The translations under genes were made by a program, and so were the position numbers. A DNA stretch of 64,000 bases, taken from an uncultured Myxococcales bacterium (GTDB taxonomy: Bacteria; Myxococcota_A; Polyangia; Palsa-1104; JAEUJZ01). The notes beneath the pieces are model-generated. The model had not been told where the DNA came from and searched no databases. It was given only the letters and a program-made list of their open reading frames with translations. Within the stretch, counting starts at the first letter, position 1, and each line of letters starts with the position of its first letter. The DNA lies in NCBI GenBank assembly GCA_964537055.1, contig CAZHYV010000004.1:46172-110171 (forward strand). The letters are read 5' to 3'. Positions 1 to 43,462 of this stretch are shown piece by piece.

Positions 1-793
1 CTCGAATTCTATCGAGGTCGCTTTTAAGGAAGGCACCTCCTTTGGTGCGAAGTTAATAGCTGTAGACCAGACCCTTGATCTTGCATTACTTCAGCTTATG
101 GACATAAGAGATTTCAGATTAAAACCGGTAGTATGGGGAGACTCCGAAAGTCTGCGAGTTGGAGAGGGGGTCGTTGTCATCGGGCACCCCTTTGGAATGG
201 ATCAAACAGTCACGGTAGGAATTATTAGTGGTACCCACCGTACACTTCGATATCGATCGGGAATAAAAGAGCGCTCTATCATTTATCGAAACTTACTGCA
301 GACTGATTCATCAATTCATGCAGGAAATTCTGGTGGCCCCTGGTTCAATCTTTCAGGAGAAGTCATTGGGATTAGCACATTGCTTATGAACCCAGGTGGA
401 GGCAGCGGCGGGATTGGTTTTGCGATTCCTTCGAATGAAGCACAAACAAGCATACAGAGGATGATAACAGCAAGGAACATCATTTTTAGAGAGCTAGGTA
501 TAGTTATGGAGCCTTATACGCATCAAAGTCGAGAAATGCTAGAGAATAGAATAGGAAAAAAAGATCAAGGAGGAGTTATTGCTGAGATCAAACTTGGCAG
601 TGTAGCAGAGATAGCTGGGCTTCTGCCTAACGATGTTCTTCTTACTATAGAAGATCAATCTTTTTCTAATGAGAGTGAGCTAGCTAGGCTTATTATACAT
701 CGAGCTCAGAAAAACACTTTACGGATTGAGATTTTGCGTAGGGGACAAAGAGACCCCCAGGCTCTATCTGTAAAAATGAAAATGCTTCCTTAA
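1..793 (+). CDS. htrA: HtrA/DegP-family periplasmic serine protease, C-terminal part (trypsin domain end + PDZ); 5' end lies outside the window
   Basis: The reading frame is open from base 2 of the window. GNSGGP catalytic-Ser motif and a PDZ-like C-terminal region are present; ORF track 98..793 extends in frame to the window start. Confidence 0.85.
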   Translation, partial: SNSIEVAFKEGTSFGAKLIAVDQTLDLALLQLMDIRDFRLKPVVWGDSESLRVGEGVVVIGHPFGMDQTVTVGIISGTHRTLRYRSGIKERSIIYRNLLQTDSSIHAGNSGGPWFNLSGEVIGISTLLMNPGGGSGGIGFAIPSNEAQTSIQRMITARNIIFRELGIVMEPYTHQSREMLENRIGKKDQGGVIAEIKLGSVAEIAGLLPNDVLLTIEDQSFSNESELARLIIHRAQKNTLRIEILRRGQRDPQALSVKMKMLP

Positions 794-1185
794 GTTTTCT
801 TCGAAAGCTTTGGCTGTCTTGCTGATTGTGCTTTTAACGAAACATACCGGAACGTTTTTGAAAAAAATGTACTTTTGGAGTCTTTTTTCTTCTCTTCTAC
901 CACTGCAGAAACTTCTGAGAATCGATTAGGTTCCATCGATACGGTACTTACCCCTTCATTTTCTAAGTCTTGTTTAAGTAATTCCAAAAAATTAGAAGGA
1001 ATTCCTTCTGGTGGTTCATCTAAGATAGTTGGAATTTCCTTAATCGGCGTGCTAATGTTATCATTTCCAGAAATTTCATAGATGACTTTCCCCGCAGGTG
1101 TTTCAGACACTGGCGGCTCCGAACCACAGCCTGCAATAAGGAAGATAAAACTCATGCTCATCCAAATGTTGCTTTTCTTCCACAT
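790..1185 (-). CDS. small lipoprotein (signal peptide MWKKSNIWMSMSFIFLIAGC); N-terminal motif shared with the adjacent gene at 1778..2668
   Basis: ORF 790..1227 trimmed to the internal ATG at 1185, which is preceded by an AGGAGG Shine-Dalgarno. Lipobox LIAGC. The ISTPIKEIPTILDEPPEGIPSNFL motif is paralogous to the downstream protein. Confidence 0.6.
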   Translation of the reverse strand: MWKKSNIWMSMSFIFLIAGCGSEPPVSETPAGKVIYEISGNDNISTPIKEIPTILDEPPEGIPSNFLELLKQDLENEGVSTVSMEPNRFSEVSAVVEEKKKDSKSTFFSKTFRYVSLKAQSARQPKLSKKT

Positions 1186-1219
1186 AGTTCCTCCTATTTC
1201 ATGTTTCTCTTTGACAAGT

Positions 1220-1738
1220 TTACACAATGGGTTTCTCTAGCGTCTCACTAAAAGATTGTGCCATTTGCAGGGCTCGCTCCTCATTCCCCGCCTGGACGAG
1301 CAGTTGAGCATCTCGATCTGAACGAATCGCTTCCACCTCCCAAGAGGAAGAACCCCGCAATCGAGCCGTCCTTTGGACTCGTATTCCGGCTATCTTCTCT
1401 ACAGGAATTACTCGTTTCCACGGAAGAAAGAAAAATCGGTCTTGAATCTCAAGCAATCTTTTCTCTTTGTCGTAATAAATCTTTTGATTCATAAACCATA
1501 GGCTCAGAAAGAACAGAGATAATAGCTCTGCAAGTACCCATCCCACAGGCCGAGAAAAATTTCCATCCACTTTGACCTCAAAAAAAGGAAGCTGGACATA
1601 GATTCCATATCGATAAAGGATCTTCAGAATGAGGAGATAAGTTACCAAAATTGCAATCGGAAGAAAGAGGATTGCGATGAACCATGGAAATCGAGCAGAG
1701 TAAAGCAATTGGCGATTTGATTGATCGTGACTCTTCAT
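1220..1738 (-). CDS. membrane protein with two N-terminal TM helices and a bacterial PH-like (YdbS/YdbT-like) cytoplasmic domain
   Basis: Hydrophobic segments FPWFIAILFLPIAILVTYLLIL and VGWVLAELLSLFFLSLWF are followed by a soluble ~90 aa domain. The fold assignment is an inference. Confidence 0.5.
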   Translation of the reverse strand: MKSHDQSNRQLLYSARFPWFIAILFLPIAILVTYLLILKILYRYGIYVQLPFFEVKVDGNFSRPVGWVLAELLSLFFLSLWFMNQKIYYDKEKRLLEIQDRFFFLPWKRVIPVEKIAGIRVQRTARLRGSSSWEVEAIRSDRDAQLLVQAGNEERALQMAQSFSETLEKPIV

Positions 1739-1777
1739 ATGGCTAACACCTTATCTCCTAACCCTCATCTTAATGAC

Positions 1778-2668
1778 CTATGAATTTGGAATCCACCCAA
1801 TTTCGATAAAACCGCCAAAGCACCCTGAGCTTCCTGCATTGACAATCTCACCCTCACTACTTGGGCAGATATCATAGGACACATTCCCTTGTATACCCGC
1901 TTGTACCTTAGCGCCTACCTTATTTGCTAGCTGGTTGAGAGTAGCACCTACAGGAAGACGGCGCAGCAAATCGATAAAAACAATTCCTTCGAGAGACCCT
2001 TTGCATTTACTCGAAAGCCCACATACAAATCCTACGGAAAGTCCATTGATGATATCGAAACTAAACTTTTTGGCAGGAGAAAAGAACGCTACCCCAGCGA
2101 GAGAGAAGTCCTTATACCATTCCACTTGGCATTCTGGTGCGCAGGTGCCGTACTTTCCCCACTTAAGTCTAGAATCAGTCCAAATATGATAGGCATTGTC
2201 TTTAGGCCACTTTTGATACATAGATAGCCCATAAAATGAATCACCTTTATGATAGCCTAACCCTCCCCAGAGCCACCCTGTTAAGTCGATACTTCCTTTC
2301 TCAAAGTCAACACACAATTCAACGGAGGCTACCATTCCAAATTCAATTGGAATCCCCGATAAAGAACTAGCACTCGCTGAGGCCATAGAAACCCCATCTT
2401 TTTGAATGACCTTCTCTAACTGCTGAAGAAAGTCGGAGGGTATTCCGCTTGGAGGCTCATTTAGAATTTTAGGGATCCCCTTGATGGGTGTACTGATCTT
2501 ATTATTCCCTGTAACTTGAAAAACGATCCCTCTCAGAGGATCGGTCAAGGCCTGTTTCCTAAAAGGGTGTTGATTTCGGGGTTTCGAGCTTTCCTGTTGC
2601 CAAGAACACTGTAGAATTAAAAACCCTAAGATGAGAGTAGTAATCTTCACAGAAGAATTTTTGGCCAA
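1778..2668 (-). CDS. secreted/lipoprotein of unknown function (TTG start); paralogous N-terminal motif with 790..1185
   Basis: Signal peptide MAKNSSVKITTLILGFLILQC. The start codon is TTG with an AGGAGGG SD 6 nt upstream. Motif ISTPIKGIPKILNEPPSGIPSDFL. Confidence 0.6.
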   Translation of the reverse strand: MAKNSSVKITTLILGFLILQCSWQQESSKPRNQHPFRKQALTDPLRGIVFQVTGNNKISTPIKGIPKILNEPPSGIPSDFLQQLEKVIQKDGVSMASASASSLSGIPIEFGMVASVELCVDFEKGSIDLTGWLWGGLGYHKGDSFYGLSMYQKWPKDNAYHIWTDSRLKWGKYGTCAPECQVEWYKDFSLAGVAFFSPAKKFSFDIINGLSVGFVCGLSSKCKGSLEGIVFIDLLRRLPVGATLNQLANKVGAKVQAGIQGNVSYDICPSSEGEIVNAGSSGCFGGFIEIGWIPNS

Positions 2669-2927
2669 GGTACCCTCCTACCATTTTCTAAAAATCAATA
2701 ATAATTTAGGACCCTTGTCAAACTTTTATTTTCCTTTTTAGGTCTCGAAGAGTACAAAGAAAACTTGGGATTCGCTGAAATACTGGCTTCTTCTTAAACA
2801 TTTGGAGGGCTGGTACGGCAGAGCTTTGCTTTAAGCCACGAATCGTTCTCAACCACGCTTGCGCATTATGCGGCTCTAGGAGCCTGGGCGCAGCACCACC
2901 AAACAAGATTACTTTCACACCTACAAC

Positions 2928-3076
2928 AAGGAGGTGGGGCGCACTCTTTGCCCAATTGAATCGTTCCGTAAGGATTTTTCGAAGGATGTACCCGATCGGG
3001 CAAACATGCTAAGTGGTTGAAAATACTACCAAAAAAATCGGGGCGAGAGGATTTGAACTTCCGACCCCCAGTCTGG
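2928..3076. repeat. direct repeat copy A (~150 bp) including a 39-nt 3' remnant of tRNA-Pro (3038..3076)
   Basis: About 90% identical to 5656..5821. Contains ...tcggggcgagaggatttgaacttccgacccccagtctgg, the reverse complement of the tRNA acceptor/T-arm. Confidence 0.8.
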
Positions 3077-3298
3077 GGAATTCCGTTGAGAAATCTAAAA
3101 AGATTATTCCGTAGAATCAAGAGATACCTGCCTTTTTCATGACTTATCTACGGATTGATTCATCGGGATTCGGATTAGCTCAATTCATGATTGGAGTAAA
3201 ATTTACGATCTCACTTTTCTCTGTTAGTAAAAAGAAGGTACCTGCCCTATTTCGTTACTCAGGTTCCTTCTCAAGGGTTCTGTGGTATGGAGCAAAGA

Positions 3299-3682
3299 AT
3301 GGAAAAAATTCTCGTGAGTGCTTGCTTGTTAGGAGCGCCTGTTCGTTATAACGGAAAGGATGCTGCCATCGAAAGTCTCTTACTGGCTCGCTGGCAGCAA
3401 GAAGGACGCCTCCTTTCCTTGTGCCCCGAGCAACAAGGAGGCCTTAAAACCCCACGTCCCGCCGCAGAGATTCTGGGAGAAGACGGGAGAGCTGTCTTGC
3501 AGAGAAAAGCCAAGGTGGTCGACCAAGCACTTCAGGAGTATACGGATGCTTTCTTACAAGGAGCTTACGCAGCTCTAAGCGTCTGTCAACGACACCAAAT
3601 CAAAATCGCTATTTTGAAGACGGAACTTCAGGAGGCCGCCCACTGCCTCGATGTCCTTATAGCACAAGGCTCTTCGGGGTGA
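3299..3682 (+). CDS. DUF523 (YbbK-like) family protein
   Basis: N-terminus MEKILVSACLLGAPVRYNGKD is the typical DUF523 signature. The start is chosen at the ATG with a GGAG SD; the ORF could alternatively start at 3287. Confidence 0.6.
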   Translation: MEKILVSACLLGAPVRYNGKDAAIESLLLARWQQEGRLLSLCPEQQGGLKTPRPAAEILGEDGRAVLQRKAKVVDQALQEYTDAFLQGAYAALSVCQRHQIKIAILKTELQEAAHCLDVLIAQGSSG

Positions 3683-3808
3683 TTCCTTACGAGCAAACTG
3701 AAAACTTTTATCCCTAATAGGTAAACAAAGACCAATGAAACGACAACAAAAAGTCTGTTCTAACAAGCTAAAAGGGTCTGTTTCGCAGCTGCCAAATAGG
3801 TTCAAGCC

Positions 3809-4294
3809 ATGACCGCAAGTGAACTGGAGGGTCGAGTCCGTGCAGCCTGGACTAGCATCGCGGCACCTCCTGCAGAAGACATGAAGCTTATGGCGTGGGG
3901 TTGGGGAGAAGAGGCTGCGCGTGCGTTCATCGGAGTTGCTCCCATGGATGTTGATATACAGTCGCACGGATTTCACGCAGCAACACCGCTTTTTGATTTG
4001 CCACCGCGTGCAGCGGCAGCTTATCTTGGGACATATCTTCTATCGTTGATCCAGTCGCTGCAATTTCAAGAAGCGGTTGGCTTGTTCGATGATATCGTTA
4101 CCCGGGCACACATAATCACGTGCATGACGAATCTGCGATTCTGGCATAGGGTCGTACGTGGACAATTACCACTGAATTGTCAACAGGTGGTAGCTCATGT
4201 GGCGCGCTTCTTGGCGGCCCGCCAGGAGGCCCTAGCGCTAAAGCCCGAGCAAGTACAGACATTGCTCGAACTCGCAGATGGTTCCCAGCCATAG
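3809..4294 (+). CDS. hypothetical protein, Ala/Arg-rich, GC-rich ORF (likely horizontally acquired)
   Basis: A 161-aa ORF whose GC is clearly above the flanking genes. It matches no family I recognise. Confidence 0.4.
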   Translation: MTASELEGRVRAAWTSIAAPPAEDMKLMAWGWGEEAARAFIGVAPMDVDIQSHGFHAATPLFDLPPRAAAAYLGTYLLSLIQSLQFQEAVGLFDDIVTRAHIITCMTNLRFWHRVVRGQLPLNCQQVVAHVARFLAARQEALALKPEQVQTLLELADGSQP

Positions 4295-4457
4295 CCCAAA
4301 AAGGTGAATTTCAAAGGCTTCTGGTCCCCTAGCAAAATCGAAGCCGAAGGGAGCGCGTCTTTCTCATAAACCGCCCGACCCGCTTCCATAGGCTATTCAT
4401 CTACCCATTTCTGCTCCTTATTGACATCAATGCCAAAATACCGTACGTTTCCGCATC

Positions 4458-5615
4458 ATGCTGCAAAGATTATGTAAGCTCCCAGAGAAAAGGTCATTTT
4501 TCCTCTTTGGTGCCCGTCAAACCGGAAAAACCACCTTGGTCCGCTCTCTTTTATCCCCACAGGACTGGGCAATCGATCTATTAAAAAATGATACTTACTT
4601 CTCCTATAAAAAAGATCCTTCTCTCTTTCGTAGAGAAGCGGAAAAAAAGATAGCAAATCAGCCCTCTTTACGAATCATGATTGATGAGATTCAGAAAGTC
4701 CCTGAGCTTCTTTCTGAAGTACATTATCTCATTGAGCAATATCCCGGTATCCAATTTATGATGACGGGATCAAACGCTCGGAAGCTAAGAAGAGGCGCAG
4801 CAAACCTACTAGCAGGAAGAGCTTTCAGTAGAATGTTATTTCCGCTCACGTATCAAGAAACTGCCCCACAGTTCCACCTAGAAGACACCCTGCTCTACGG
4901 CTCTTTGCCCGCTGTTTTATCTTTATCTCCAACAGACAAACGAGATTTTTTAAGGGCTTATACTGACACCTATTTAAAAGAAGAAATCCAGGCTGAAGCT
5001 TTGGTTAGAAATCTAGGGGGATTTCATCGCTTCTTAGAAGTCGCCTCTGCTCAATGCGGTGAGACGATTAATTTTGCCTCCATTGCGAGAGAAAGCGGAA
5101 TTGCTTCGCGTACGATCCAAAGTTATTACGAAATTCTAGAAGACACATTGATCGGTTTTCGATTAGAGGCTTGGAGGAAGAGTGCTCGCAAACGACTTTT
5201 GGAACATCCAAAATTCTATCTTTTCGATACAGGGGTTACGAATGCTATCAATCATCGTTTAGAAGGAAGGCTAGACCCTGTCCAAAAAGGAAGGTTATTT
5301 GAACAATTTATTATTTTAGAAACGGTGAGGATGCTTTCTTATCAGCAAAGTGACATACGGGCTTATTATTGGAGAACCAACCATGGGGCTGAGGTAGATT
5401 TGGTCTTAGAAAAAAACAATGATCTGATTGCAGGGATTGAGATCAAATCATCTCGAGAGATTGCTAGAGCTGATCTGACCGGGCTTCGCTCCCTGAAAGA
5501 GGATTATCCCCATGCAAAATCGTTCATTGTTTCGCAGCTTCCGCACAGCTTCGACCTTGATTTTGCGACTGTATTGTCGTTTCAAGATTATTTTCAGTGG
5601 TTATTAACCCAATAG
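4458..5615 (+). CDS. AAA+ ATPase of the AAA_14 + DUF4143 family
   Basis: Walker A GARQTGKTTL near the N-terminus and a ~385 aa architecture typical of this family. Paralogous to 8488..9615. Confidence 0.8.
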   Translation: MLQRLCKLPEKRSFFLFGARQTGKTTLVRSLLSPQDWAIDLLKNDTYFSYKKDPSLFRREAEKKIANQPSLRIMIDEIQKVPELLSEVHYLIEQYPGIQFMMTGSNARKLRRGAANLLAGRAFSRMLFPLTYQETAPQFHLEDTLLYGSLPAVLSLSPTDKRDFLRAYTDTYLKEEIQAEALVRNLGGFHRFLEVASAQCGETINFASIARESGIASRTIQSYYEILEDTLIGFRLEAWRKSARKRLLEHPKFYLFDTGVTNAINHRLEGRLDPVQKGRLFEQFIILETVRMLSYQQSDIRAYYWRTNHGAEVDLVLEKNNDLIAGIEIKSSREIARADLTGLRSLKEDYPHAKSFIVSQLPHSFDLDFATVLSFQDYFQWLLTQ

Positions 5616-5655
5616 GAAATCTCTTGAACTTATACACTCTGTCTTCATTTTCCAA

Positions 5656-5821
5656 AGGAGGTGGGGCGCAATATTTGCCCAATTGAATCGTTCCGTAAAC
5701 GTTCCGTAAGGATTTTTCGAAGGATGTACCCGATCGGGCAAACATGCTAACTGCTTGAAATTGTTACTAAAAAATCGGGGCGAGAGGATTTGAACCTCCG
5801 ACCCCCAGACCCCCAGTCTGG
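5656..5821. repeat. direct repeat copy B (overlaps the 3' half of tRNA-Pro and ~120 bp downstream of it)
   Basis: Aligns with 2928..3076. Contains an internal cgttccgtaa duplication relative to copy A. Confidence 0.8.
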
Positions 5822-5849
5822 TGCGCTAACCAGGCTGCGCCACGCCCCG
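5775..5849 (-). tRNA. tRNA-Pro (anticodon GGG)
   Basis: Cloverleaf read by eye. Acceptor CGGGGCG/CGCCCCG, D-stem GCGC, anticodon stem CCAGA/TCTGG with loop CTGGGGG, T-arm GGAGG-TTCAAAT-CCTCT, discriminator A, no encoded CCA. Confidence 0.85.
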
Positions 5850-6080
5850 AAAAGTAAAGTGGTTTTATCAGCAATACGCTTTGCCGTCAAGGATTGTTCC
5901 ATAAGCCTCCAGAAAATCTAGCGTCCCCTTCCAGATACCCCTGTAGACTACCTCAAGGCCAGAGCATTCGTGAGTCAGCTGTTGCAAAACGCGCTTCCAG
6001 CCAGCGATGGCCCGTCCCCTTCTGGCCCTTTTCTTATAAAATTCATACCTTAGCCGCCAAGAATCTGCTATAACTCACGA

Positions 6081-7361
6081 ATGCGTTCGTCGCGAATTCC
6101 AGGGTTTTTCCAAATGCCGGCCGAGCTTAGGCGGAAAGAGATTGCCACACGCTGCAAGCTATCCCAAGAAGAAGTGGATCATCTTCTCATGACAGGCCTT
6201 GATTTTTCCACCGCAGACCGAATGACCGAAAATGTCGTTGGTCTATTTAAGCTTCCTCTTTCGATTGCTACCAATTTCCAAATCAATGGAAAAGACTACC
6301 TCATTCCTCTTTGCATCGAAGAACCCTCGGTGGTTGCCGCCGCCTCCAGAGCAGCCCTTTTGGTCCGAGAGGGTGGTGGCTTTTCGGCTACTTCCGACCC
6401 ACCTGTTATGATTGGACAGGTTCAACTACTCGAGGTAAAGGATACGAAAGCGGCCAAAGAATCGCTCCTTGCTAGGCAAGATGAACTTATTTCTCTTGGG
6501 AACCAGATGGTGCCTTCCCTGGTTCGTCGTGGGGGCGGCTTGCGAGGAATCGAAGTACGTATTCTCACAGAAAGCCCATCCCCTCCTCGTCAAGCTACAG
6601 AACCACATCTTTCCTTCTCTACGACCTCAACCACGAAAGCCTCATCCTCAGTCATCTCATCCACAAGAGCCCTATCTCCTGGACAAACATCTTCCGGCGA
6701 AATGGTGATCCATCTTCTGGTTGATTGCCAAGATGCGATGGGTGCCAATCTGACCAACCAAGTCGCAGAATCTTTGGCCCCAAGGCTTGCCGAGCTTTCG
6801 ATGGGTCGCGTGGGACTACGCATCCTATCGAATCTTTCAATCTATCGGAAAGTCCAAGCAAAGTGTACCATTCCTGTAAGCACGCTTGCCTATCAATCTT
6901 TCTCAGGCGAAGAAATGCGAGACCGTATCATTTCGGCAAGTGATTTTGCCAAAAAAGATCCCTTTCGAGCAGCCACCCACAACAAAGGAATTATGAACGG
7001 GGTAGATGCGCTAGTGATCGCGACGGGGAATGATTTCCGTGCCGTAGAAGCAGGCGCACATGCCTACGCATCACTCTCGGGGAACTACCAGCCACTCGCC
7101 ATTTGGAGTAAAAGCAAAGAAGGGCACTTACAGGGAGAGCTAGAGATGCCTCTCTCGCTTGGAACCAAAGGAGGAACCCTTGCCGCCAGAAGGGATGTAG
7201 CCTTGGTACTTAAAATTCTCGAAATAGAGTCCGCCCAAGAACTTTCTCAGGTGGCTGGATGTGTAGGCCTTGCCACCAACCTTTCTGCGCTCCGGGCTCT
7301 TTCCAGTGGGGGCATCCAAAAAGCCCATATGCCTCTCCATTACCGATCAATCGCAAAATAG
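6081..7361 (+). CDS. mvaA: class II (NAD(P)H-dependent) HMG-CoA reductase with a Ser/Thr-rich low-complexity insertion
   Basis: ENVVG, DAMGAN and GTKGG-type motifs are present. It is collinear with Pseudomonas mevalonii HMGR except for a ~40 aa S/T-rich insert before the DAMGAN block. Confidence 0.85.
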   Translation: MRSSRIPGFFQMPAELRRKEIATRCKLSQEEVDHLLMTGLDFSTADRMTENVVGLFKLPLSIATNFQINGKDYLIPLCIEEPSVVAAASRAALLVREGGGFSATSDPPVMIGQVQLLEVKDTKAAKESLLARQDELISLGNQMVPSLVRRGGGLRGIEVRILTESPSPPRQATEPHLSFSTTSTTKASSSVISSTRALSPGQTSSGEMVIHLLVDCQDAMGANLTNQVAESLAPRLAELSMGRVGLRILSNLSIYRKVQAKCTIPVSTLAYQSFSGEEMRDRIISASDFAKKDPFRAATHNKGIMNGVDALVIATGNDFRAVEAGAHAYASLSGNYQPLAIWSKSKEGHLQGELEMPLSLGTKGGTLAARRDVALVLKILEIESAQELSQVAGCVGLATNLSALRALSSGGIQKAHMPLHYRSIAK

Positions 7362-9627: not shown

Positions 9628-9688
9628 CGAGTTTTTTCACCCAGAGTCAAAATTACTCGCGAGTTTTTTCACCCAGAGTCAAAATTAC
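9628..9688. repeat. two perfect 29-bp tandem direct repeats (cgagttttttcacccagagtcaaaattac) separated by 3 bp, immediately upstream of the ATPase gene start at 9615
   Basis: Read directly from 9628..9656 and 9660..9688. Confidence 0.9.
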
Positions 9689-11964: not shown

Positions 11965-12251
11965 CGAGATACATTCCTTTAGAAGTACCTTCTTTTAAAC
12001 GTGTTCTTACTAAGCGTATTCTTACCGTAACAACAGATTAAGTAGTTAGACTCTCATTGCAGGTCCTTATTCTTGTCGGAGAAAGTAGGAACATGTAGTC
12101 TGAAGTAATTACTTATCTCACGAATTTTCATACGATCTTTTACTTTTTTTCCTAACCAAAAATTTTTGTGTTAGGTTGCGCTCTCGTTAGGGCAGCAGAG
12201 AATACGTTTGCCCTTAATAACCCTGGTTGTAACTACCGTTTTGGAGATTTT

Positions 12252-13772
12252 ATGAAAACATATATTGCGCTTCTAGGAACCCTTCTTTTCCTTGCTTCTT
12301 GTAACTTTAGCATCCCGGCAAAGCCTTTTCCAGATCCAATGGATATGCCTCCCGTTGGAACACAAGATTTTAACGTAGCCAACATTGATACAAAATTCGG
12401 TGATACTAAAGGGGGAACGACCATCACCCTTACGGGCAAGGGGCTCACCCAAGATACCAAAGTGACGGTTGGCGATAAGGTAGCTGTGGTCAAAAGTGCA
12501 TCTGCAGACGGGACTAGCCTTCAATTCACTTTACCAGCAAGTCCAGGAACTGTGGGAAAGAAAACCATTACCCTCATGAACACAAAGGGTATGGTAGTCG
12601 AGTTAAAGGATGTGTTTACTTACTATTTAGGAAATATCTCTTTTACCAGTATGTCTTCAGCAGCAATTCTTAGTAGTACCTCTCCTTTGCATATTGCGGT
12701 AGCGAATCTTGATAATGACGCAAACAACATTCAAGATCTTGCCATTGTCAATATGGACAACCGAAACGTTGATATTCTGGTTGGGGACGGCCAAGGGAAC
12801 TTCAGCCTGAATCCAATCCTCCAGTTTAACTTTGGTGGTACTTACCATAATTTTTCTGCTACTGGAGATTTCAACAACGACGGTCTTACCGATTTAGCCA
12901 TTATCAGCCCAGGCGATAGTTTAATCGCGCTTGCCCAAAAACGTCCGGGAGCAACCAACGGTTTTGTTATTGAGGGAAACATAGGTTCTGGGAATATCCC
13001 AAATGCGATTGTTCTTGTGGATCTGGATGGAGATAACCGTCTTGACATTGCTGCAGCCAACACAGACACCACCAATATGAACCGTCTTAGCGTCTATCGT
13101 AATAATACTCCAGCCATGGGAGTCGTTACCTACCTTCCTCCCCAAAAACTTCCTCTGCCAACTGCCGTTTCCTCCCTCCTAGCAGCGGACCTGAACAAGG
13201 ATGGAAAAGTTGACTTGGTTGCTGCTTCCTCTACCAGCTTCCATGCCCTCCTTAACACAGGGATGGCCGCCACACTCTTTGCAGGCACTCCAGCGGACCA
13301 AGCTTTCTCAGGCTTTACTCCTCAGGCAGGGTTTTTTGCCCCTCTTTCGATGACCTCCTCATCTAACCAGATAGACCTTGCGTTTGTAGGAACGGATGGC
13401 ACCAACAAGACCATGGCTTTCTATGATAACACCTCTCCAGGGACCTCCCTTGCCTTTACCAAAAACACTGCCAGTGTGATGGTAGAGTCAGGCGTGGGAA
13501 ATCCGGCAAGCTCTCTAGCCATGGTTGATTTCAACAAAGATGGCTATAACGATTTTGTTGTCACCTCAGGTTCAACCATTCGGGTCTATCTTAGCAAAGC
13601 CTTAGAAGGAAAAGGCCTAGCTTTCGCAGATGCGATTGTATTCCAGACCGTAACACCTACGGTCCTAAGAGACATGAAATTGGTAGATACCAACGCAGAT
13701 GGATTAATGGATATCGTCACCATTTCTCGAAATGATGCAAAGGTCTACGTATTCCAAAATAGCTCAAACTAG
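12252..13772 (+). CDS. lipoprotein with an IPT/TIG domain followed by FG-GAP (integrin-alpha-like) repeats
   Basis: Start at the ATG with a GGAGA SD; lipobox LASC. DxNxDGxxD repeats: DFNNDGLTD, DLDGDNRLD, DLNKDGKVD, DFNKDGYND, DTNADGLMD. Confidence 0.75.
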   Translation: MKTYIALLGTLLFLASCNFSIPAKPFPDPMDMPPVGTQDFNVANIDTKFGDTKGGTTITLTGKGLTQDTKVTVGDKVAVVKSASADGTSLQFTLPASPGTVGKKTITLMNTKGMVVELKDVFTYYLGNISFTSMSSAAILSSTSPLHIAVANLDNDANNIQDLAIVNMDNRNVDILVGDGQGNFSLNPILQFNFGGTYHNFSATGDFNNDGLTDLAIISPGDSLIALAQKRPGATNGFVIEGNIGSGNIPNAIVLVDLDGDNRLDIAAANTDTTNMNRLSVYRNNTPAMGVVTYLPPQKLPLPTAVSSLLAADLNKDGKVDLVAASSTSFHALLNTGMAATLFAGTPADQAFSGFTPQAGFFAPLSMTSSSNQIDLAFVGTDGTNKTMAFYDNTSPGTSLAFTKNTASVMVESGVGNPASSLAMVDFNKDGYNDFVVTSGSTIRVYLSKALEGKGLAFADAIVFQTVTPTVLRDMKLVDTNADGLMDIVTISRNDAKVYVFQNSSN

Positions 13773-14067
13773 TCTTCCCCTCAAAAGCCGGCCTGATCGA
13801 AGGAAGGCCTGGTTGAGCGTTCTTTGCCTCATCTAGGCCTTCCCTTTTCGCCCTAACAGCCTACTATCTCCTACAAGCAGATTTCGTAATAACCTTTTAA
13901 GAAATTGGTGGCTTAGCTCTTCCTCAAGAAAAAACAAATTAGTCTGTATTTGCGCTTGAACCTGTGCTAAAATGAATAAACGTTTATCTTTCTAAAGCAC
14001 ATAGATAGACATGAAGCAAAAGAACGATCAAATGGTATCGTAGGTAATGAACGTAAAGGAGACAGTG

Positions 14068-15492
14068 ATGGGACAAAAACATTTATCTCAAATCTTTGGG
14101 GTCGTATTTCTGCTCTCTTCTCTAAGCTGTGGAACAAATTCCTCAGATCCAAATGGCGCTATTGATCCATCCCTACCCCCTAAAATTAAGTCCATCACCC
14201 CTGGCTCCGCAAAAACAAGCGGTGGCGAAGTCGTTTCGATCCAAGGAGAAAACTTCATTTCTGGAATTACTGTTTCCTTTGATGAGCAAGCTGCAGAGGA
14301 TATAGACCTGGTCTCTTCTACAGAAATTAAAGTTTTGGTGCCTAAACGGATAGGGATTCAAGGGAACGTTCCCGTAAAACTTACAAACCATACCTCTCAC
14401 GGAGCACTCTCTGATACGGCGACTGAACTATTTGCTTACTATCCCTCGTTGATGCAATTTGGTTCAATTCTCTCCGTCCAAGGAATGGTCCCCACTCTTG
14501 TTGCAACTTCTTTGAATATGACAGGTGATGGAAGGCCATCGCTTATAGCAAGCCAGACGAATAGCCAAACCAATGATACCGAGTTAAGCGTTTTTTTATA
14601 TAACTCTGTGACAAAGCAGTTTGTTGGTACTTCGTTTTACTCGACAAAAGAGGTTCCTACGGTAATGTCTAAAGCATTTTTGAATACCGATAACAAAGAA
14701 GATCTTCTTGTGGGTCTCTCCTCAGGAAAGATTTTACTGTTCTTCAATAATGGGGCAGGAAGCTTTGTTCCACCCATTACGCTAGTGCCCGCTATTACAG
14801 GGGCTGTTAAATTTCTTACCCCTGTAGACTACAATAAAGATGGGAATATGGATATCGGCGTTATGGTGGATAACTACCTTGGCTTTATTCATAATAACGG
14901 GGATGGAACCTTCGCCCTTTTAAAGATGGGATTTGCAGGAAATACTCCCACCTTTCCGGCGATGATTGATTATAACCATGATGGTTGGTTAGACTTTTTA
15001 GTAATCTCCAATGCCAGAACGTACTTACTTCAAGGGAACCCAGACGGAACTTTCCAAACGGCCTCTGGCATGAGTGAGATTGCCTCGCCAAAAGCTTTCG
15101 TGGTGTCTGACTTTAACAACGATAAGAAGGCAGATCTCTTGGTAGTGAAAGACAATGGTGGTGTCATAGAATCCAGCATATGGTTCGAACACGGAGGAGC
15201 TTTTCAGGCAAAAGATTCCCTACCTTTTGTAGAAATCCCTAAGAATATGATAGCAACTGACTTGAATGGAGATTCAATACTCGATCTAATCATTACAGGC
15301 GAAAGTATGATGTTTGCTCATCTTGGCAATGGAGATGGAACTTTCCAAGCGCCTACTTATTTCTCAAGCCCTGCGAAGAGCAGCTTGGTTACGATTGGGG
15401 ACCTCGACTTAGATACAAAGCCCGATATTCTAGTTTACTACCTCGACGGAATGAACCCTACTCTGGGACTTGTCCCGAACACATCCCAGTAA
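14068..15492 (+). CDS. secreted protein with an IPT/TIG domain and FG-GAP repeats (paralogue of 12252..13772)
   Basis: Start at the ATG with an AAGGAGA SD. Repeats DYNKDGNMD, DYNHDGWLD, DFNNDKKAD, DLNGDSILD. Confidence 0.75.
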   Translation: MGQKHLSQIFGVVFLLSSLSCGTNSSDPNGAIDPSLPPKIKSITPGSAKTSGGEVVSIQGENFISGITVSFDEQAAEDIDLVSSTEIKVLVPKRIGIQGNVPVKLTNHTSHGALSDTATELFAYYPSLMQFGSILSVQGMVPTLVATSLNMTGDGRPSLIASQTNSQTNDTELSVFLYNSVTKQFVGTSFYSTKEVPTVMSKAFLNTDNKEDLLVGLSSGKILLFFNNGAGSFVPPITLVPAITGAVKFLTPVDYNKDGNMDIGVMVDNYLGFIHNNGDGTFALLKMGFAGNTPTFPAMIDYNHDGWLDFLVISNARTYLLQGNPDGTFQTASGMSEIASPKAFVVSDFNNDKKADLLVVKDNGGVIESSIWFEHGGAFQAKDSLPFVEIPKNMIATDLNGDSILDLIITGESMMFAHLGNGDGTFQAPTYFSSPAKSSLVTIGDLDLDTKPDILVYYLDGMNPTLGLVPNTSQ

Positions 15493-17924: not shown

Positions 17925-18087
17925 GCGTCTCTGAAAATACTTGATTCCGAAGGCTCTTAAGAATTGCTATCCCGTTTTTCTGCTGATCCTGTACGGTCCA
18001 TGTACGTTTCTGTCGTTGAGGTACGGCAGAATTACATATTATTTGTTTGTCTTGCATGCACGTTGTCACGCATGTTACGATAAGTAT

Positions 18088-19923: not shown

Positions 19924-19958
19924 AAGATAATTAATTAGTGATCACAGGAGAATTTTCC

Positions 19959-27634: not shown

Positions 27635-27890
27635 GATGCTTTAAGAAATTGCTACAACCGTGGCTGGTTGGTCTTTAGTTAAACATGAGGTTTTCTAAGG
27701 ACAAAATTTTCGATGAGGTCGAAAAACTTACCTTGATGCTTATCCTAGCATAAATGGAAGTAGAGGGGCTAACGAGATTTCATTTCAAAAGAAGCGATTT
27801 TTATTTTTATGCAACTAGCTTCTTAAGGGCTCTTACGTTTCCATTACTTTCTCATTGCCGAACCCTTCGTTCCTGTGGTACCGTAATAAA

Positions 27891-28397
27891 ATGCGTCTTT
27901 CTCTCTCTGAACAAATTTTTTCGAAAAAGTTACTTACCCAAATCACATTTGCAGGAATGATGTCTTTGGGCATCATCTCTTCGGCATTTGCGATTACTTC
28001 TTCTGATTTTAGCAATCTTTGCCCTTACGTTGCGGGAATTTCTCCTCCCACTGGGGGTAACAACCCACCTGGAAGCAACAATCCGTCTGGAGGCAACAAT
28101 CCTCCTGGAAGCAACACCCCCTCCTGTACCGGAGTTGATTCTGATGCAGACGGATTCCCCGATGCTTGCGATAATTGCCCTACTATCCCAAATGCTGATC
28201 AAACAGATACAGGAAACCTCAAAATCGGCGATGCCTGTCGGCCTGGGGTTTCGGGAGGGGTTGGATGCACAATCGGGACAAATGGTTCTGCTGGACAAGG
28301 ATTTCCTCGATGGTATGCATTCGCCCTGCTTCTGGGAGTGATATCGATGCTCTTCCTGCGCAAGCGGTTTTCTCAAAGCACACATGCAGCTCGATAA
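27891..28397 (+). CDS. small secreted protein with Gly/Pro/Asn repeats, a thrombospondin type-3 (Ca-binding) repeat and a MYXO-CTERM-like Cys...TM...RKR tail
   Basis: DSDADGFPDACDNCPTIPNADQTD. C-terminal GVGCTIG...WYAFALLLGVISMLFLRKR. Confidence 0.55.
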   Translation: MRLSLSEQIFSKKLLTQITFAGMMSLGIISSAFAITSSDFSNLCPYVAGISPPTGGNNPPGSNNPSGGNNPPGSNTPSCTGVDSDADGFPDACDNCPTIPNADQTDTGNLKIGDACRPGVSGGVGCTIGTNGSAGQGFPRWYAFALLLGVISMLFLRKRFSQSTHAAR

Positions 28398-38369: not shown

Positions 38370-40442
38370 CTACCAAGTGTACGTCGGGCTCTTTGCGCTA
38401 TCGTTGAAAAAAACAAAGAGGCGGTTTTGTTCTCTAAAGCCTATCCACCCATGAACCAAAACGTCCTTCTGCCCATCTCCATCAAAATCACCTACCAGCG
38501 GCGGAAGACACCCTGCCTCTTCAGAAAAGCTGACTCGGCTTGTTCCCTCATCGTACCCATCGTCCTCCAAGCTAGCAAAAACGACGAGGCCGTTGCATGC
38601 GGGAACATTTTCAAGCTCCAATATATCTGGATATCCATCCTCTGTGATGTCATCGATGGCAGTCGTCCTCAGATTTTCCAACCGTACTTTGGCAGACCTT
38701 AAGGTTCGGAGATTTTTCTGCTCATCAAGGGCAAGAATATTGGCCCGATAAGATAATAGTGTAGAAGAAAAGCCACTTTTTTCCCAGGAAAGTTGGTTTA
38801 AATCGATCGCAAAAAGGGCGGGTTTCGCCTGATGCATATAGGATTTCACAACAAACCCGTCGAATACACCTCCTGCGTCCTTAGGCTGATAGTCCACAGT
38901 CGAGAATTGAAACCCTCCACGCTCTTGCCCTAAGACGAGTTTTACAGCTGCCCGCGATTGAAAGATCAGATCTTCCTGCCCATCTTGGTTGATGTCTAAT
39001 ACATCCACGAATTCGCTATCTTTCAGGAAGCCGCTTTTATCATCCCCTAGCAGGGTGAGAGGACTAAACTCTCCAGGTGTCTTGGTACCCCACATGACGC
39101 CCCATTGTGGACGTGAAAGAAAACCTGAAAGAACAAAGAATAGATCCCTTTGACCGTCATGGTTAATATCCAATACTTTGGTAGCAGAAACAGGCTGTGG
39201 AAAGGGATAATTCGGAATTTTTATTTTGGTAACTCCCATCAAGCTACTCGTTAACAGAAGAATGTACATCTCCTCTTTATCATCACTTTTCGTGCGCACG
39301 AGCAGATCAAGATAACGATCACTGTTGGCATTCATTGGAACCAGTTCAACAATAGGATCTGCCATCGAAAGAATAGCGCTTTTCTTAAGCTTCCGATCTG
39401 CATCTCCCCAAAAGATCTGAAGTTGCTTCTCTCCAACAACAATAGCATCACTTTTTCCATCTTGGTCGATATCCTTCACAAGTACTTGGGAAATCCGTTG
39501 AAAGTCGGGGGTTAAAGTGAGTGGTTCTTTTGCGAGAGTGACTGTCTTTCTTAGGAGGGGATAGCTTAGATTTTCAATTGATGGGAAATGTTTCAAATAA
39601 TAAGAAGGATATTCACGATCCTCTTTCATCTTCGAGAGAAGAGGTGGAAGGGAATAGATTGAGTAAAATTTACTCTCCATTGCTCCAGCAATAGATGCTA
39701 CTTCATCTCTTTTAAAATACGTTTGGTTTTCGCGACGGTTCCCCTGCATAAAGCCCCATAGGAGTCCAATTTCCCAACCACAAGGACCATCCATACCGAC
39801 ATCTGCCCTTGGAAGGAAGGGAGTGAACTCTGGTAAATAGACCTGGTGCTGACCTGTCTCACTATGTCTGGCTTCATGAAGCAGAAGCGTAGCCATCTCA
39901 ACCGCATCCCCTCGCTCCTCTCTTAACCTCATCTCCTCATTCTTATTGAGAATTTCCGCTGGAATAAGCTCCTCTCGGTTCTCACAAATATGGATCGCCT
40001 CCGGGGTATAGTAAGACGTATTGGTAAGAGAGTTGCATCCGTACCGTATCTCTAATGATGCGTTCAGAATATAATTGAACATTTCTTGGTTCAGATTCTT
40101 ATCTGGGTCCCGAACAAATCGTTCATAAAAATCAAACATCCCGGCTTCTTTTATGGTACCAAGCCCAAACATTTTTTTATCTTTGGGAAAAGCAAGGGGG
40201 CTCGTGAGTAAAAGGTGAAGCGCTCTGATTATATCTTGCTTCTCTTTTGGATGAGCTTCAAAAGAAGCTACATCGATCGGCGCCATCCGTGTGATTACCT
40301 CATCGCAACCGTGAGTCAACTCCCCCTGACAAGTCCCAGTTGCGGTAATTTCACTATAAAAATCCTTCTGGCAGGCCACAAACAGGAAACTGCTGAATAT
40401 TGAAAAAATCCACAAATCGTATTTGTTCAATAACATGATCAT
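38370..40442 (-). CDS. lipoprotein with an N-terminal Cys-rich domain bearing HEARHSETGQH (HExxHxxxxxH, metzincin-like spacing) and C-terminal FG-GAP repeats
   Basis: ATG at 40442 (the ORF-track start is TTG). Lipobox FVAC. FG-GAP-like DIDQDGKSD, DINHDGQRD, DINQDGQED, DITEDGYPD, DFDGDGQKD. C-terminus SPTYTW. Confidence 0.7.
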   Translation of the reverse strand: MIMLLNKYDLWIFSIFSSFLFVACQKDFYSEITATGTCQGELTHGCDEVITRMAPIDVASFEAHPKEKQDIIRALHLLLTSPLAFPKDKKMFGLGTIKEAGMFDFYERFVRDPDKNLNQEMFNYILNASLEIRYGCNSLTNTSYYTPEAIHICENREELIPAEILNKNEEMRLREERGDAVEMATLLLHEARHSETGQHQVYLPEFTPFLPRADVGMDGPCGWEIGLLWGFMQGNRRENQTYFKRDEVASIAGAMESKFYSIYSLPPLLSKMKEDREYPSYYLKHFPSIENLSYPLLRKTVTLAKEPLTLTPDFQRISQVLVKDIDQDGKSDAIVVGEKQLQIFWGDADRKLKKSAILSMADPIVELVPMNANSDRYLDLLVRTKSDDKEEMYILLLTSSLMGVTKIKIPNYPFPQPVSATKVLDINHDGQRDLFFVLSGFLSRPQWGVMWGTKTPGEFSPLTLLGDDKSGFLKDSEFVDVLDINQDGQEDLIFQSRAAVKLVLGQERGGFQFSTVDYQPKDAGGVFDGFVVKSYMHQAKPALFAIDLNQLSWEKSGFSSTLLSYRANILALDEQKNLRTLRSAKVRLENLRTTAIDDITEDGYPDILELENVPACNGLVVFASLEDDGYDEGTSRVSFSEEAGCLPPLVGDFDGDGQKDVLVHGWIGFREQNRLFVFFNDSAKSPTYTW

Positions 40443-40480
40443 AAAATCCCCCACAGGCTTGCTCGCCTCCAAAGGGATCT

Positions 40481-41329: not shown

Positions 41330-41428
41330 AGGTCTTTTATAGCATGATTCCCGTCTTTGATTAAAAGAAAATTTTTCAAGGCTACAGCATACCTACGTGG
41401 CTGATCCTTCTCACAGCTTGGCTGTTGC

Positions 41429-43462
41429 TCACCAAGTATACGAAGGGCTCTCTTTCCCCTCATGGAAAAAAATAAAGACCTGCTTCTTACTGGTGAGAAC
41501 GGCAATATCTTTATACCCATCCCCATTAAAATCTCCCACGATAGGAGAAGCCGAAAGGAAGGTGTTCTCCGAGCTTTCTGCATTAAGCAGAGGAATATTT
41601 TTATCAAGATACCCCTCTCCATTCATGCTTGTAAAAATTTTTATTTGAACTCCATTATACGTCCTCTGAGAAGATAAAATCTCGGGATACCCATCTCCTG
41701 TAAAGTCGTCAACGGCAAAGTTTATATTTTTGCCAGGATTCTCGCCTGATGTCTGTGAATACAAGGTGGATTTTTTCATAGGCTCCTGGGAGATAGGAAC
41801 CGGAAGCGCGTTCATGGTTTGGATGAAAAAGGGCCCCTTCTTACCTGCTAGTTCTGTTACTGCACTTTCGTTGATAGAGATAAGAGGATATTTTTGGCCT
41901 TGGCCTAAGTAGAAAAGAAAGAACGCTCTTGCCTCTGTGGAGTCTTGAGAGAAGGGATCTATCTTCTGGAAGTGAAATTTCTGCCCCGAGGCACCGAGCC
42001 CTAGGATCACACTGGTTTGTGAGCAAAAAATAAGATCCTCATAACCATCTTGGTTGATATCACTTAGGGTATGAAGCACACTGTCCTGAAGTAGATCCTC
42101 TGCATCCCACCCCCATAAAGTGAGAGGATGAAATTCTCGAGGGTTTTGAGATCCTAAACGCACACCCCAGCTCCGATCCGAAAAGTAATAGAACAGATCT
42201 TTCTGTCCGTCTCTATTAAGGTCGGCAATCTTTACAGAGAGGATAGACGGCCGCTCCACGTCAGCGGCAACTTCTATAAGGTCTGCCGATGATTCTTTCC
42301 CCGCGATCGGAAGAAAGTACGTTTTCTCGATTGAGGTAATTACAAGACCTCGATACTGAGGATCAGCATGGTCGAGGAAGTCGACGTTTGTAATCTCTTC
42401 TTCCATTTCAATCTTCTGCCCCCCTTCCAAGGTACGATTCGTGCTGCCAAAGAGAACCTGGATTTCCTTCTCACCTACCACGACGAGATCAAGCGTTCCG
42501 TTATGATCGATGTCTTTCCCAAAGCCTTTCTCAGTTACTTTTTCTACTTCGCTTGTAAAAGATTGTGCTTTATCTGGGAATACAACCATTGATATCATTG
42601 AGGGATAATGCAGACTTTCCACAAGCGGAAAATTCCTACGGTAGTCCTGGAAGAATGTCTTTTGCGAAACAGGCGGTAGAAATACCTCGGGAGGCGCAAA
42701 AATATAACCAAATCTGGTTTGCAATCGGTCAATCAGTTTCTTCAGGGTATCCCGGTCAAAATAGGGCACCTTGGCCTGATCATTTCCATGAAAAAATCCC
42801 CATAATAGCGCAGCTTCCCAGCCAAAGGGACCATCAAGTCCCACATCTCCTCGGGGTACAAGCGGAGTCGAGGAGGGCACGTAAACTTGGTGCTGCCCTG
42901 TCTCGCTATGTCTCGCTTCATGGAAGAGCAAAGTTACTGTCATAATAAGATTTTTCTCCTGGGTCTCGTCAGAGATATTCTTTGTTTGTTGCTCGGTAAA
43001 ACAAACATGGATCGCCTCGGGCGTGTAGAAAGAAACCCCTGTCACCGAGTTACATTCATACCGAATTTCTTGGGCTGCATTAAAAATATAATTGAGGATG
43101 GCTTGGTTGATGGAAGGAGTGGGCTCTTTTACAAAGCGCTGATAAAAATCATTCATGCCTGCCTCCTGCCATGTGCCTAATCCAAAGATTTTTTTATCCT
43201 CTGGAAATGCAATCGGTGCGGTCAGAAGCAGATGAATCGCTTTCACCACTCTTTGTTCAGCCCCAGGATGGTCTACAAAGGATTCCAGATCAAGAGGTGC
43301 ATTCGAAACAATCGCCTGGTAACAATCCTCGGTAAGTTCTCGTCCACAAGTCCCCGCTTCAACAATGTTTGTATAATAGTCTTTCTTACAAGAACTGAGG
43401 CCATAGCTCATAGAAAAAAGTCCTAGAGACAAGAGAATCTTGATGGGGAAAGATTTTATCAT
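41429..43462 (-). CDS. lipoprotein paralogue of 38370..40442 (HEARHSETGQH motif + FG-GAP repeats)
   Basis: Lipobox LSSC. The same conserved blocks are present (GTCxxELTxxC, RYxCNS, TLLxHEARHSETGQHQVY), and the C-terminus is SPSYTW. Confidence 0.7.
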   Translation of the reverse strand: MIKSFPIKILLSLGLFSMSYGLSSCKKDYYTNIVEAGTCGRELTEDCYQAIVSNAPLDLESFVDHPGAEQRVVKAIHLLLTAPIAFPEDKKIFGLGTWQEAGMNDFYQRFVKEPTPSINQAILNYIFNAAQEIRYECNSVTGVSFYTPEAIHVCFTEQQTKNISDETQEKNLIMTVTLLFHEARHSETGQHQVYVPSSTPLVPRGDVGLDGPFGWEAALLWGFFHGNDQAKVPYFDRDTLKKLIDRLQTRFGYIFAPPEVFLPPVSQKTFFQDYRRNFPLVESLHYPSMISMVVFPDKAQSFTSEVEKVTEKGFGKDIDHNGTLDLVVVGEKEIQVLFGSTNRTLEGGQKIEMEEEITNVDFLDHADPQYRGLVITSIEKTYFLPIAGKESSADLIEVAADVERPSILSVKIADLNRDGQKDLFYYFSDRSWGVRLGSQNPREFHPLTLWGWDAEDLLQDSVLHTLSDINQDGYEDLIFCSQTSVILGLGASGQKFHFQKIDPFSQDSTEARAFFLFYLGQGQKYPLISINESAVTELAGKKGPFFIQTMNALPVPISQEPMKKSTLYSQTSGENPGKNINFAVDDFTGDGYPEILSSQRTYNGVQIKIFTSMNGEGYLDKNIPLLNAESSENTFLSASPIVGDFNGDGYKDIAVLTSKKQVFIFFHEGKESPSYTW

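Follow-up and report, generated by a model that had tools for sequence, protein, structure and literature searches.

What process left a second copy of part of a tRNA-Pro gene, together with more than 100 bp of adjoining DNA, ~2.6 kb away from the gene itself? We addressed this question in a 64,000-nt stretch of DNA from an uncultured Myxococcales bacterium (GenBank assembly GCA_964537055.1, contig CAZHYV010000004.1, positions 46,172 to 110,171), hereafter referred to as the window. An interpretation made from the letters alone (the sequence-only reading) had proposed the footprint of an integrated island that now lacks an integrase. We found that the displaced part of the tRNA gene is present twice rather than once, and that its copies bound two small units with unrelated cargo, designated E1 and E2. 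The explanation that we favor, and that we consider probable, is a tandem array of at least two small, related integrative elements that were successively inserted in tRNA-Pro(GGG) and are both now integrase-less.

Three copies of the tRNA-Pro 3' part

ARAGORN called a single tRNA gene in the window, an intact tRNA-Pro(GGG) on the minus strand at 5774..5850, and Rfam model RF00005 matched the same gene at 5775..5849 (-) with 61.9 bits, in agreement with the sequence-only reading. The direct repeat containing the tRNA 3' part, placed by that reading at 2928..3076, was likewise borne out. A repeat finder, MAFFT and a gapped pairwise alignment concurred on a repeat of 2928..3078 and 5655..5823 in the same orientation, with 140 matches and 10 mismatches among 150 aligned bases and indels of 11, 1 and 8 nt. 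Identity over non-gap columns was 93%, compared to the ~90% estimated previously, and the repeat includes an exact 51-bp core (2962..3012 = 5700..5750). This is the sole long repeat pair in the 64-kb window, shuffled sequence returned zero matches for probes from the tRNA 3' end and the arms, and the repeat is far above chance expectation.

Several finer details of the earlier description required revision. The internal duplication in the tRNA-proximal copy (copy B) measures 11 nt (CGTTCCGTAAA, 5689..5699) rather than 12, and the supposed 6-bp indel is an 8-nt indel within the tRNA part, where the tRNA carries two tandem CTGGGGGT units (tRNA positions 34-41 and 42-49) while the displaced fragment (fragment A; 3037..3076, minus strand) carries one. 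Instead of 39 nt of the tRNA 3' end, the contiguous match comprises 35 nt (3037..3071) and reaches position 29 once the 8-nt gap is bridged. Fragment A begins with the first base of the anticodon stem (tRNA position 29) and ends with the discriminator base (position 75); the nucleotides that it lacks are those of the 3' strand of the anticodon stem, and it bears a T-stem mismatch at 3059.

A third copy was found beyond the window. A search with the 296-aa protein encoded near the left end of the window retrieved a Logan contig (L082, read set SRR11567520) that matches window 1..2991 exactly in reverse complement and adds 618 bp of sequence outside the left end. Its final 50 nt correspond, with one mismatch, to tRNA positions 29-75 plus three trailer bases, in the orientation of the tRNA gene. 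This fragment (copy C; L082:3560..3606, same strand as the tRNA) lies 3.6 kb beyond fragment A, and ARAGORN called no tRNA gene at copy C or elsewhere in the contig. The ~76 bp preceding copy C (L082:3484..3559) closely match the sequence that flanks fragment A on its island side (window 3156..3077), from which they differ by 3 mismatches and 2 small indels (~95% identity). When mapped onto the window, this arm together with copy C (L082:3484..3609) occupies positions -492 to -617. Fragment A therefore has two partners: it shares ~76 bp 5' of the fragment with copy C, and 118 bp 3' of the fragment with copy B. In both A and C, identity to the tRNA begins at position 29.

These comparisons define how the locus is put together. 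Read in the direction of the tRNA, copy B consists of the tRNA 5' half (the B of B-O-P'), a core (O) and a 118-bp arm; fragment A consists of a 76-80-bp arm, O and a 109-bp arm; and copy C consists of a 76-bp arm and O, at which point the contig ends. Designating the arm 5' of the core P and the arm 3' of it P', copies B, A and C read as B-O-P', P-O-P' and P-O-?, and on this alignment evidence the layout is tRNA(O)-P' / E1 / P-O-P' / E2 / P-O. The intact tRNA (core O, tRNA positions 29-75, window 5821..5775) would accordingly be the left attachment (att) site, attL, while fragment A would supply the core of the middle junction. Because A and C share the 5' arm and A and B share the 3' arm, the middle junction is a full P-O-P', and it forms a complete attP-like site of 229 bp. 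The array may not end at copy C. L082 stops at the last 31-mer that holds the private mismatch of copy C, and the next bases, at least a fourth T, are common with copy B, which hints at a possible further P'-type arm after copy C.

Three contigs from two read sets (L081 and L082 from SRR11567520, L090 from SRR11567529) matched the window at 100%, lending independent support to the arrangement. One of them, L081, is 2,747 bp in length, or approximately one repeat period, and was considered as an excised circle. This candidate was rejected, as its ends coincide with the points at which the 51-bp exact core interrupts a k = 31 graph and thus reflect an assembly break. An exchange within this core makes no new 31-mers, so graph contigs are blind to excision. 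A repeat search for terminal inverted repeats at the unit ends, as in a transposon with its target duplication, found inverted repeats to be absent there.

Junction arms and probable serial integration at tRNA-Pro

The E1 P' arm (5655..5774, minus strand; ~118 bp) immediately adjoins the tRNA 3' end. It contains a T-run, two TTACGGAACG motifs in tandem and an inverted repeat of 12 bp, which is imperfect (TTTGCCCGATCG ... CAATTGGGCAAA). Its E2 counterpart (2928..3036, minus strand) is 109 bp long and contains one TTACGGAACG motif; the 11-nt "duplication" of copy B is the second copy of this motif. The E1 P arm (3077..3156, minus strand; ~76-80 bp) contains two ACGGAAT motifs. The P and P' arms include the stretches GCAGGTATCTCTTGATTCTACGGAA and AAGGATGTACCCGATCGGGCAAAC, respectively. 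Arm homology stops sharply at the outer edges.

The two P' arms are identical apart from positions 2944 and 2946, the 11-nt indel and a variable patch that occupies 3013..3031 in copy A and 5751..5768 in copy B. Within this 19-nt patch beside the tRNA end, 7 of 19 positions differ, compared to 3 of 131 elsewhere (Fisher p = 1.6e-5). Because the differences cluster in the patch, the remainder of the P' arm looks constrained. An octamer, WACGGAAY or (T/A)ACGGAA(T/C), is present at three sites in junction A and at two in arm B, all on one strand; the whole window contains 10 sites where ~6 are expected, and the expectation per junction is ~0.02. We regard it as a candidate arm-site motif with a predicted role in integrase binding, which is a lead and not proof. 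The inverted repeat pairs in the predicted fold with a z of about -1.5 to -1.6, which is not significant. Taken together, the sharp arm ends, the clustering of differences, the octamer and the inverted repeat appear more consistent with a constrained recombination site than with neutral host flank.

Other functions were considered for the P' arm and discarded. Any shared reading frame is broken by the 11-nt indel, arguing against coding sequence; Rfam returned no match and the arm folds no better than shuffles (z of -0.1 to -1.6), arguing against an RNA element; and promoter and terminator scans of the 118-bp arm remained at background level.

From these junctions we infer a mechanism of recombination and an order of events. 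Each element would have carried the same kind of attP, of ~229 bp, composed of a P arm of ~76-80 bp, core O and a P' arm of ~110-118 bp, where O copies the tRNA from position 29, at the start of the anticodon stem, through position 75, at the 3' end. Upon integration at the anticodon stem-loop, the tRNA would be rebuilt from the core of the element, and the old 3' part would be displaced downstream. Two such events would yield tRNA(B-O-P') - E1 - (P-O-P') - E2 - (P-O-...), and the outcome would be the same whether the second integration took place at the regenerated tRNA or at the displaced fragment. The recombinase, a putative tyrosine integrase, would have been either lost by deletion or supplied from elsewhere.

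This model bears on how the repeat itself is to be understood. The ~150-bp repeat is best read as O plus P', visible at attL and at the middle junction, and the 118 bp beyond the tRNA, which the sequence-only reading had treated as downstream flank, as an element-borne attP arm rather than host DNA. What appeared to be an atypical, over-long att repeat would then be a core plus one arm, seen twice as two related elements stand side by side. The core of the sequence-only reading, an inserted, integrase-less segment between the tRNA and a displaced 3' fragment, is supported, and of the origins that it had offered, the one now favored, by virtue of copy C and its shared other arm, is integration (tandem or secondary) of elements with a common flank.

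The 8-nt deletion in fragment A removes the anticodon-stem dyad around the presumed crossover region. With the dyad of the middle core destroyed, this junction is probably dead and E1 is probably fixed, unable to leave alone. The sole remaining route of excision would be an exchange between B and C, which would remove E1 and E2 together.

Cargo of the two units and the search for mobility genes

Unit E1 spans 2.7 kb (5773..3077) and carries 3 genes. The largest (4458..5615, plus strand) encodes a full-length, 385-aa ATPase with Pfam AAA_14 (E = 8.7e-23) and DUF4143 (E = 4.8e-35) domains, and matches the PADLOC model PDC-S01 (PDLC04790, E = 7.6e-68), a candidate single-gene defense family. As this model is defined by AAA_14 combined with DUF4143 (PD-(D/E)XK-like), the protein is, by its domains, a PDC-S01 member and a candidate antiviral gene product. 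PDC-S01 proteins, in which an ATPase is fused to a PD-(D/E)XK-type domain, are very common, have moved between domains of life and have not been experimentally validated (PMC12988326). The best homologues of the E1 ATPase are 53-66% identical and bear names from Elusimicrobia, Deltaproteobacteria, Chlamydiae and Spirochaetes; at the two homologue loci examined, the neighboring genes differ and the contexts are unrelated. A second AAA_14/DUF4143 gene of the PDC-S01 type is located at 8488-9615 (-) and its product is only 23% identical to the E1 ATPase. Just upstream of the start of this gene, at 9628-9688, the 29-nt sequence CGAGTTTTTTCACCCAGAGTCAAAATTAC is present twice, as a perfect direct repeat with a 32-nt period.

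The second E1 gene (3809..4294, plus strand) encodes a 161-aa protein without a Pfam or PDB match. The sequence-only reading had described it as a GC-rich orphan. It is indeed GC-rich, but it belongs to a small conserved family with 63 cluster representatives at E <= 1e-3 and 12 at E <= 1e-30, mostly 156-173 aa in length, and its best full-length match is 59% identical. A single-sequence AlphaFold model of the protein had a pLDDT of 49, too poor for use. The family is uncharacterized and has an invariant Trp near the N-terminus, and one representative (P0246) is a 324-aa tandem fusion.

The third gene (3287..3682, plus strand) belongs to the DUF523 (2-thiouracil desulfurase) family. Its presence between the repeat copies had been recognized before; its truncation had not. 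The Pfam match covers profile positions 1-99 of 141, and homology to full-length relatives of 160-182 aa ends near nt 3625, which is also where tblastn matches of relatives P0127-P0129 end. The gene has lost the SPSCG motif and the C-terminal ~50 residues, or C-terminal third, and tblastn with P0127-P0129 did not find this remainder elsewhere in the window. A scan of GC content, as suggested by the sequence-only reading, proved weakly informative with respect to foreignness: the gene of the 161-aa protein, at 54.5% the highest of 42 genes, is the sole outlier, while the AAA_14 gene is at 42.0% compared to a window mean of 45.9%. The truncation of DUF523, a GC content that varies between 42.0 and 54.5%, and the unrelated contexts in which the closest homologues of each gene reside show E1 to be decayed and mosaic in origin. 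All six proteins that were looked up are singletons at 90% identity.

Unit E2 spans 3.6 kb, from 3036 to 1 and onward to about -567. Its 296-aa protein (1778..2668, minus strand), the "lipoprotein" of the sequence-only reading, has a signal-peptide-like N-terminus. A homologue search of 5.8 billion proteins returned only the protein itself, and Pfam, PHROG and NCBIfam gave no match. Two ORFs (open reading frames) without a family match follow at 790..1738 on the minus strand, encoding 172 aa (1220..1738) and 131-145 aa (790..1185 or 790..1227). A trypsin/PDZ (HtrA-like) protease of 421 aa, identified by Pfam and the L082 gene calls, is encoded on the plus strand at L082:2199-3464; its C-terminal part lies in the window (1..793), while its start is outside, ~20 bp from the E2 P arm. 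A metagenome scan with peptide patterns of this protease found no relative. Given its location inside att-bounded E2, the protease may be an accessory gene rather than a housekeeping HtrA.

Repeat searches found nothing common to the E1 and E2 cargo outside the arms. The gene at 1778..2668, which had been taken as the host boundary, lies inside this second att-bounded segment, which runs off the left end of the window. Because it is within E2, an empty site in which tRNA-Pro adjoins the "lipoprotein" gene was the wrong expectation. The boundary of the island is moved accordingly, to include ~6.4 kb of accessory DNA left of tRNA-Pro rather than 2.6 kb. This segment holds a candidate defense ATPase, an HtrA-like protease easily taken for housekeeping, and a gene for a secreted-type protein that turned up in no other genome.

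We searched both units for genes that could account for their mobility. Pfam scans covering the genes as well as every stop-to-stop segment detected no integrase or transposase in the 2.6 kb between copies A and B, as the sequence-only reading had stated, and no integrase remnant was found at E <= 1 in the ten longest stop-to-stop segments of intergenic DNA. PF00589 was absent from the E1 and E2 genes, the intergenic stop-to-stop segments of >=37 aa and the other window ORFs scanned. Because no integrase or remnant was found in the scanned ORFs, the class of the recombinase, tyrosine integrase, is one that we infer purely. The family matches among the other window ORFs scanned are to chromosomal housekeeping genes (holB, rseP, lepA, gltX, pheS, hprK, ptsI and mutS2) together with leucine-rich-repeat (LRR) and WD40 proteins. 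Pfam, PHROG and NCBIfam scans likewise detected no relaxase or transfer genes in E1 or E2, and no phage structural, lysis, replication or packaging genes were found there by PHROGs, which yielded a weak match of the DUF523 fragment to phrog_27395 (unknown function) and, for the 161-aa gene, a single match with E = 0.0065.

Relatives of the array were sought in viral, metagenome and genome data. IMG/VR contained no close relatives of the arms or cargo. A phage or plasmid origin was rejected, as the arm and cargo probes of IMG/VR and DNA searches of phage and plasmid records matched only the tRNA. The DUF523 truncation attests to one internal deletion; the scans of E1 and E2 revealed no mobility-gene relic, and the viral and metagenome scans no parent element. 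Metagenome scans with the arm core and the full protease found no relative of this genome, nor did a scan of the contigs of species genomes with the HMG-CoA reductase gene described below, which returned only matches of <=50% identity from unrelated phyla.

Known systems, competing explanations and neighboring features

The array has clear counterparts among elements that use tRNA genes (tDNA). In the Islander catalogue (Hudson, Lau and Williams 2015), the anticodon-centered class accounts for 2083 of 3919 islands, attP sites of tDNA-integrating islands are ~250 bp, and 125 tandems of two or more are listed; each island must hold a PF00589 integrase gene, and the lower size limit is 2 kb (PMC4383910). 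Like Islander islands, the locus has an intact tRNA with displaced 3' fragments downstream in the same orientation (A and C), and these fragments, running from the anticodon stem to the 3' end (tRNA 29-75), fall into class A, the anticodon-centered class. The 229-bp junction is close to the ~250-bp attP, and several units are located serially at one tRNA. In contrast to Islander islands, E1 and E2 lack PF00589, such that both would be filtered out; they are also near the 2-kb limit, and one core is damaged.

A second counterpart is provided by cis-mobilizable elements (CIMEs), which have lost their integration and transfer genes while keeping attL and attR, and which accumulate in tandem, via site-specific accretion, at the 3' end of a target gene (Pavlovic et al. 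2004 and Bellanger et al. 2011, summarized in PMC5704250). Likewise, E1 is located between B-O-P' and P-O-P', and E2 between P-O-P' and P-O, both without integrase, relaxase or transfer genes. CIMEs, however, are decayed integrative and conjugative elements (ICEs) or integrative and mobilizable elements (IMEs) of Firmicutes with relatives that still possess int and tra, whereas we saw no parent element, functional partner or relic of conjugation or mobilization genes. The locus fits the CIME definition as a CIME-like tandem array, with ICE/IME descent and cis-mobilization being putative.

The tycheposons of Prochlorococcus integrate serially at one tRNA and are parted by partial tRNA copies; in their islands older, degenerate remnants are pushed deeper, and the cargo includes defense and adaptation genes (Hackl et al., bioRxiv 10.1101/2020.12.28.424599). 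These arrays of elements and remnants separated by partial tRNAs resemble that of E1 and E2, although tycheposons possess tyrosine recombinases and replication modules that E1 and E2 lack. The same tRNA is used by prophages. One IMG/VR contig (L086) has a full tRNA-Pro(GGG) followed ~100 bp on by a PF00589 tyrosine integrase (L086:669-1761), a spacing similar to the 118-bp P' arm. Another (L085) has, after an Rz-like lysis gene, a tRNA-Pro 3' fragment starting at the anticodon stem (6189-6236) and flanked by repeated GTGTACTAT motifs; its extent is that of the fragments described here. These prophages match the 3' part of the target tRNA exactly over 34 nt, but they carry phage genes and an integrase, and their arms have no sequence likeness to those of E1 and E2. 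Taken together, these comparisons identify the locus as a cleanly preserved tDNA island array of a known kind, probably produced by the ordinary mechanism of tandem accretion and decay.

Several observations nevertheless weigh against serial integration followed by loss of the integrases. No integrase or remnant is present in E1, E2 or the other ORFs scanned of the 64-kb window, and none of the viral, metagenome and genome scans brought up an empty site, an excised circle or a related element bearing these arms. All four arms are kept in two elements stripped of every mobility gene, which is somewhat unexpected under random decay. Copy C derives from a short-read contig of a read set and lies outside the window, and L082 stops exactly where its 31-mers become common to copy B. 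Finally, the WACGGAAY motif was picked after inspection of the sequence.

Alternatively, E1 and E2 would be cassette-like minimal units, composed of cargo and a ~229-bp tRNA-derived attP, that never had an integrase of their own and were stacked at tRNA-Pro by one acting in trans. We consider this unlikely, albeit the most credible of the alternatives. The integrase might then reside beyond copy C or on a helper element, the units would be akin to integron cassettes or satellites, and the array may run past the left end of the window. The units are indeed very small (2.7 and 3.6 kb), they are without mobility genes or an integrase fragment beside either arm, their four arms are intact, 93-95% conserved and sharp at the outer edges, and copy C seemingly continues with the T-run of a P' arm, judging from the L082 unitig break, in which case the array may go on. 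On the other hand, no helper integrase is known, the truncated DUF523 gene indicates that deletions did happen within E1, and the damaged middle core looks like a fossil rather than an active site. Moreover, there are two units only, the scans made found no other genome with such cassettes, and decayed elements retaining both att sites, namely CIMEs, have already been described (PMC5704250). Integron cassette arrays require intI/attI and attC hairpins, whereas the scanned ORFs here include no integrase and the junctions are tRNA-derived; the phage genes that would mark a prophage or phage satellite are absent from E1 and E2. If true, the cassette model would represent a novel means of assembling small gene arrays at tRNA genes, a tRNA-anchored analogue of the integron cassette array.

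The P-O-P' middle junction does not in itself demand a second integration. A single old att-flanked island could have been duplicated in tandem via homologous recombination or unequal crossing-over between the tRNA repeats, with one cargo replaced later: an unequal attL x attR exchange on sister chromosomes also yields P-O-P', and the long exact stretches in the arms, including the 51-bp core, could support RecA-dependent exchange. We nevertheless judge this improbable. The E1 and E2 cargo have no common sequence outside the arms, so that the whole interior would have to be swapped with the arms left untouched, and the 5-7% divergence of the arms, with one patch strongly diverged, fits two diverged element lineages better.

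Still less probable is a segmental duplication of host DNA, an option raised by the sequence-only reading, in which the tRNA 3' part and its native flank were copied 2.7 kb away with no mobile element involved. In its favor, a simple att core would not usually be accompanied by 118 bp of repeat beyond the tRNA, and the composition of the AAA_14 gene is native-like. Such a duplication fails to explain the third fragment, copy C, which contradicts it, or the ~76-bp identity of A and C on the opposite side, or the common start of the fragments at tRNA position 29. As for an assembly artefact, a collapsed or mis-joined repeat is the least credible explanation of all, given that copy-specific variants flank each repeat in independent contigs from two read sets (L081, L082 and L090) at 100% identity and that the window is part of a 251,739-bp contig, even though short-read graph contigs break exactly at the 51-bp core and short reads alone cannot order the pieces.

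Serial integration thus remains the reading that we favor, and under it the middle junction provides a complete, sharply bounded P-O-P' attP, including candidate arm-site motifs, whose integrase has yet to be discovered in this lineage.

Additional features of the window were recorded. Directly upstream of tRNA-Pro is an HMG-CoA reductase gene (6081-7361; class II/degradative, TIGR00532) with a GC content of 50.8%, which may have been acquired; among the species genomes scanned it had no relative above 50% identity, and its best matches were from Polyangia and Chloroflexota. An 18-nt tandem repeat at 28046-28117, within ORF 27855..28397, comprises three overlapping 36-nt copies of 72-81% identity and would encode a short Pro/Gly/Asn-rich peptide repeat. 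A family of 36-nt repeats with five copies of 64-81% identity extends over 38961-42223, in two large, neighboring minus-strand ORFs, 38370..40472 and 41429..43462. The latter ORF shares a C-terminal motif related to XAC2610 with ORFs 12168..13772 and 14047..15492, and the three look like paralogous large secreted proteins. Finally, leucine-rich-repeat proteins and a WD40 beta-propeller protein are encoded among the housekeeping genes (17941-21260 and 35967-36971). Eukaryote-like domain content of this kind (LRR, WD40) is often seen in bacteria living inside eukaryotic cells.

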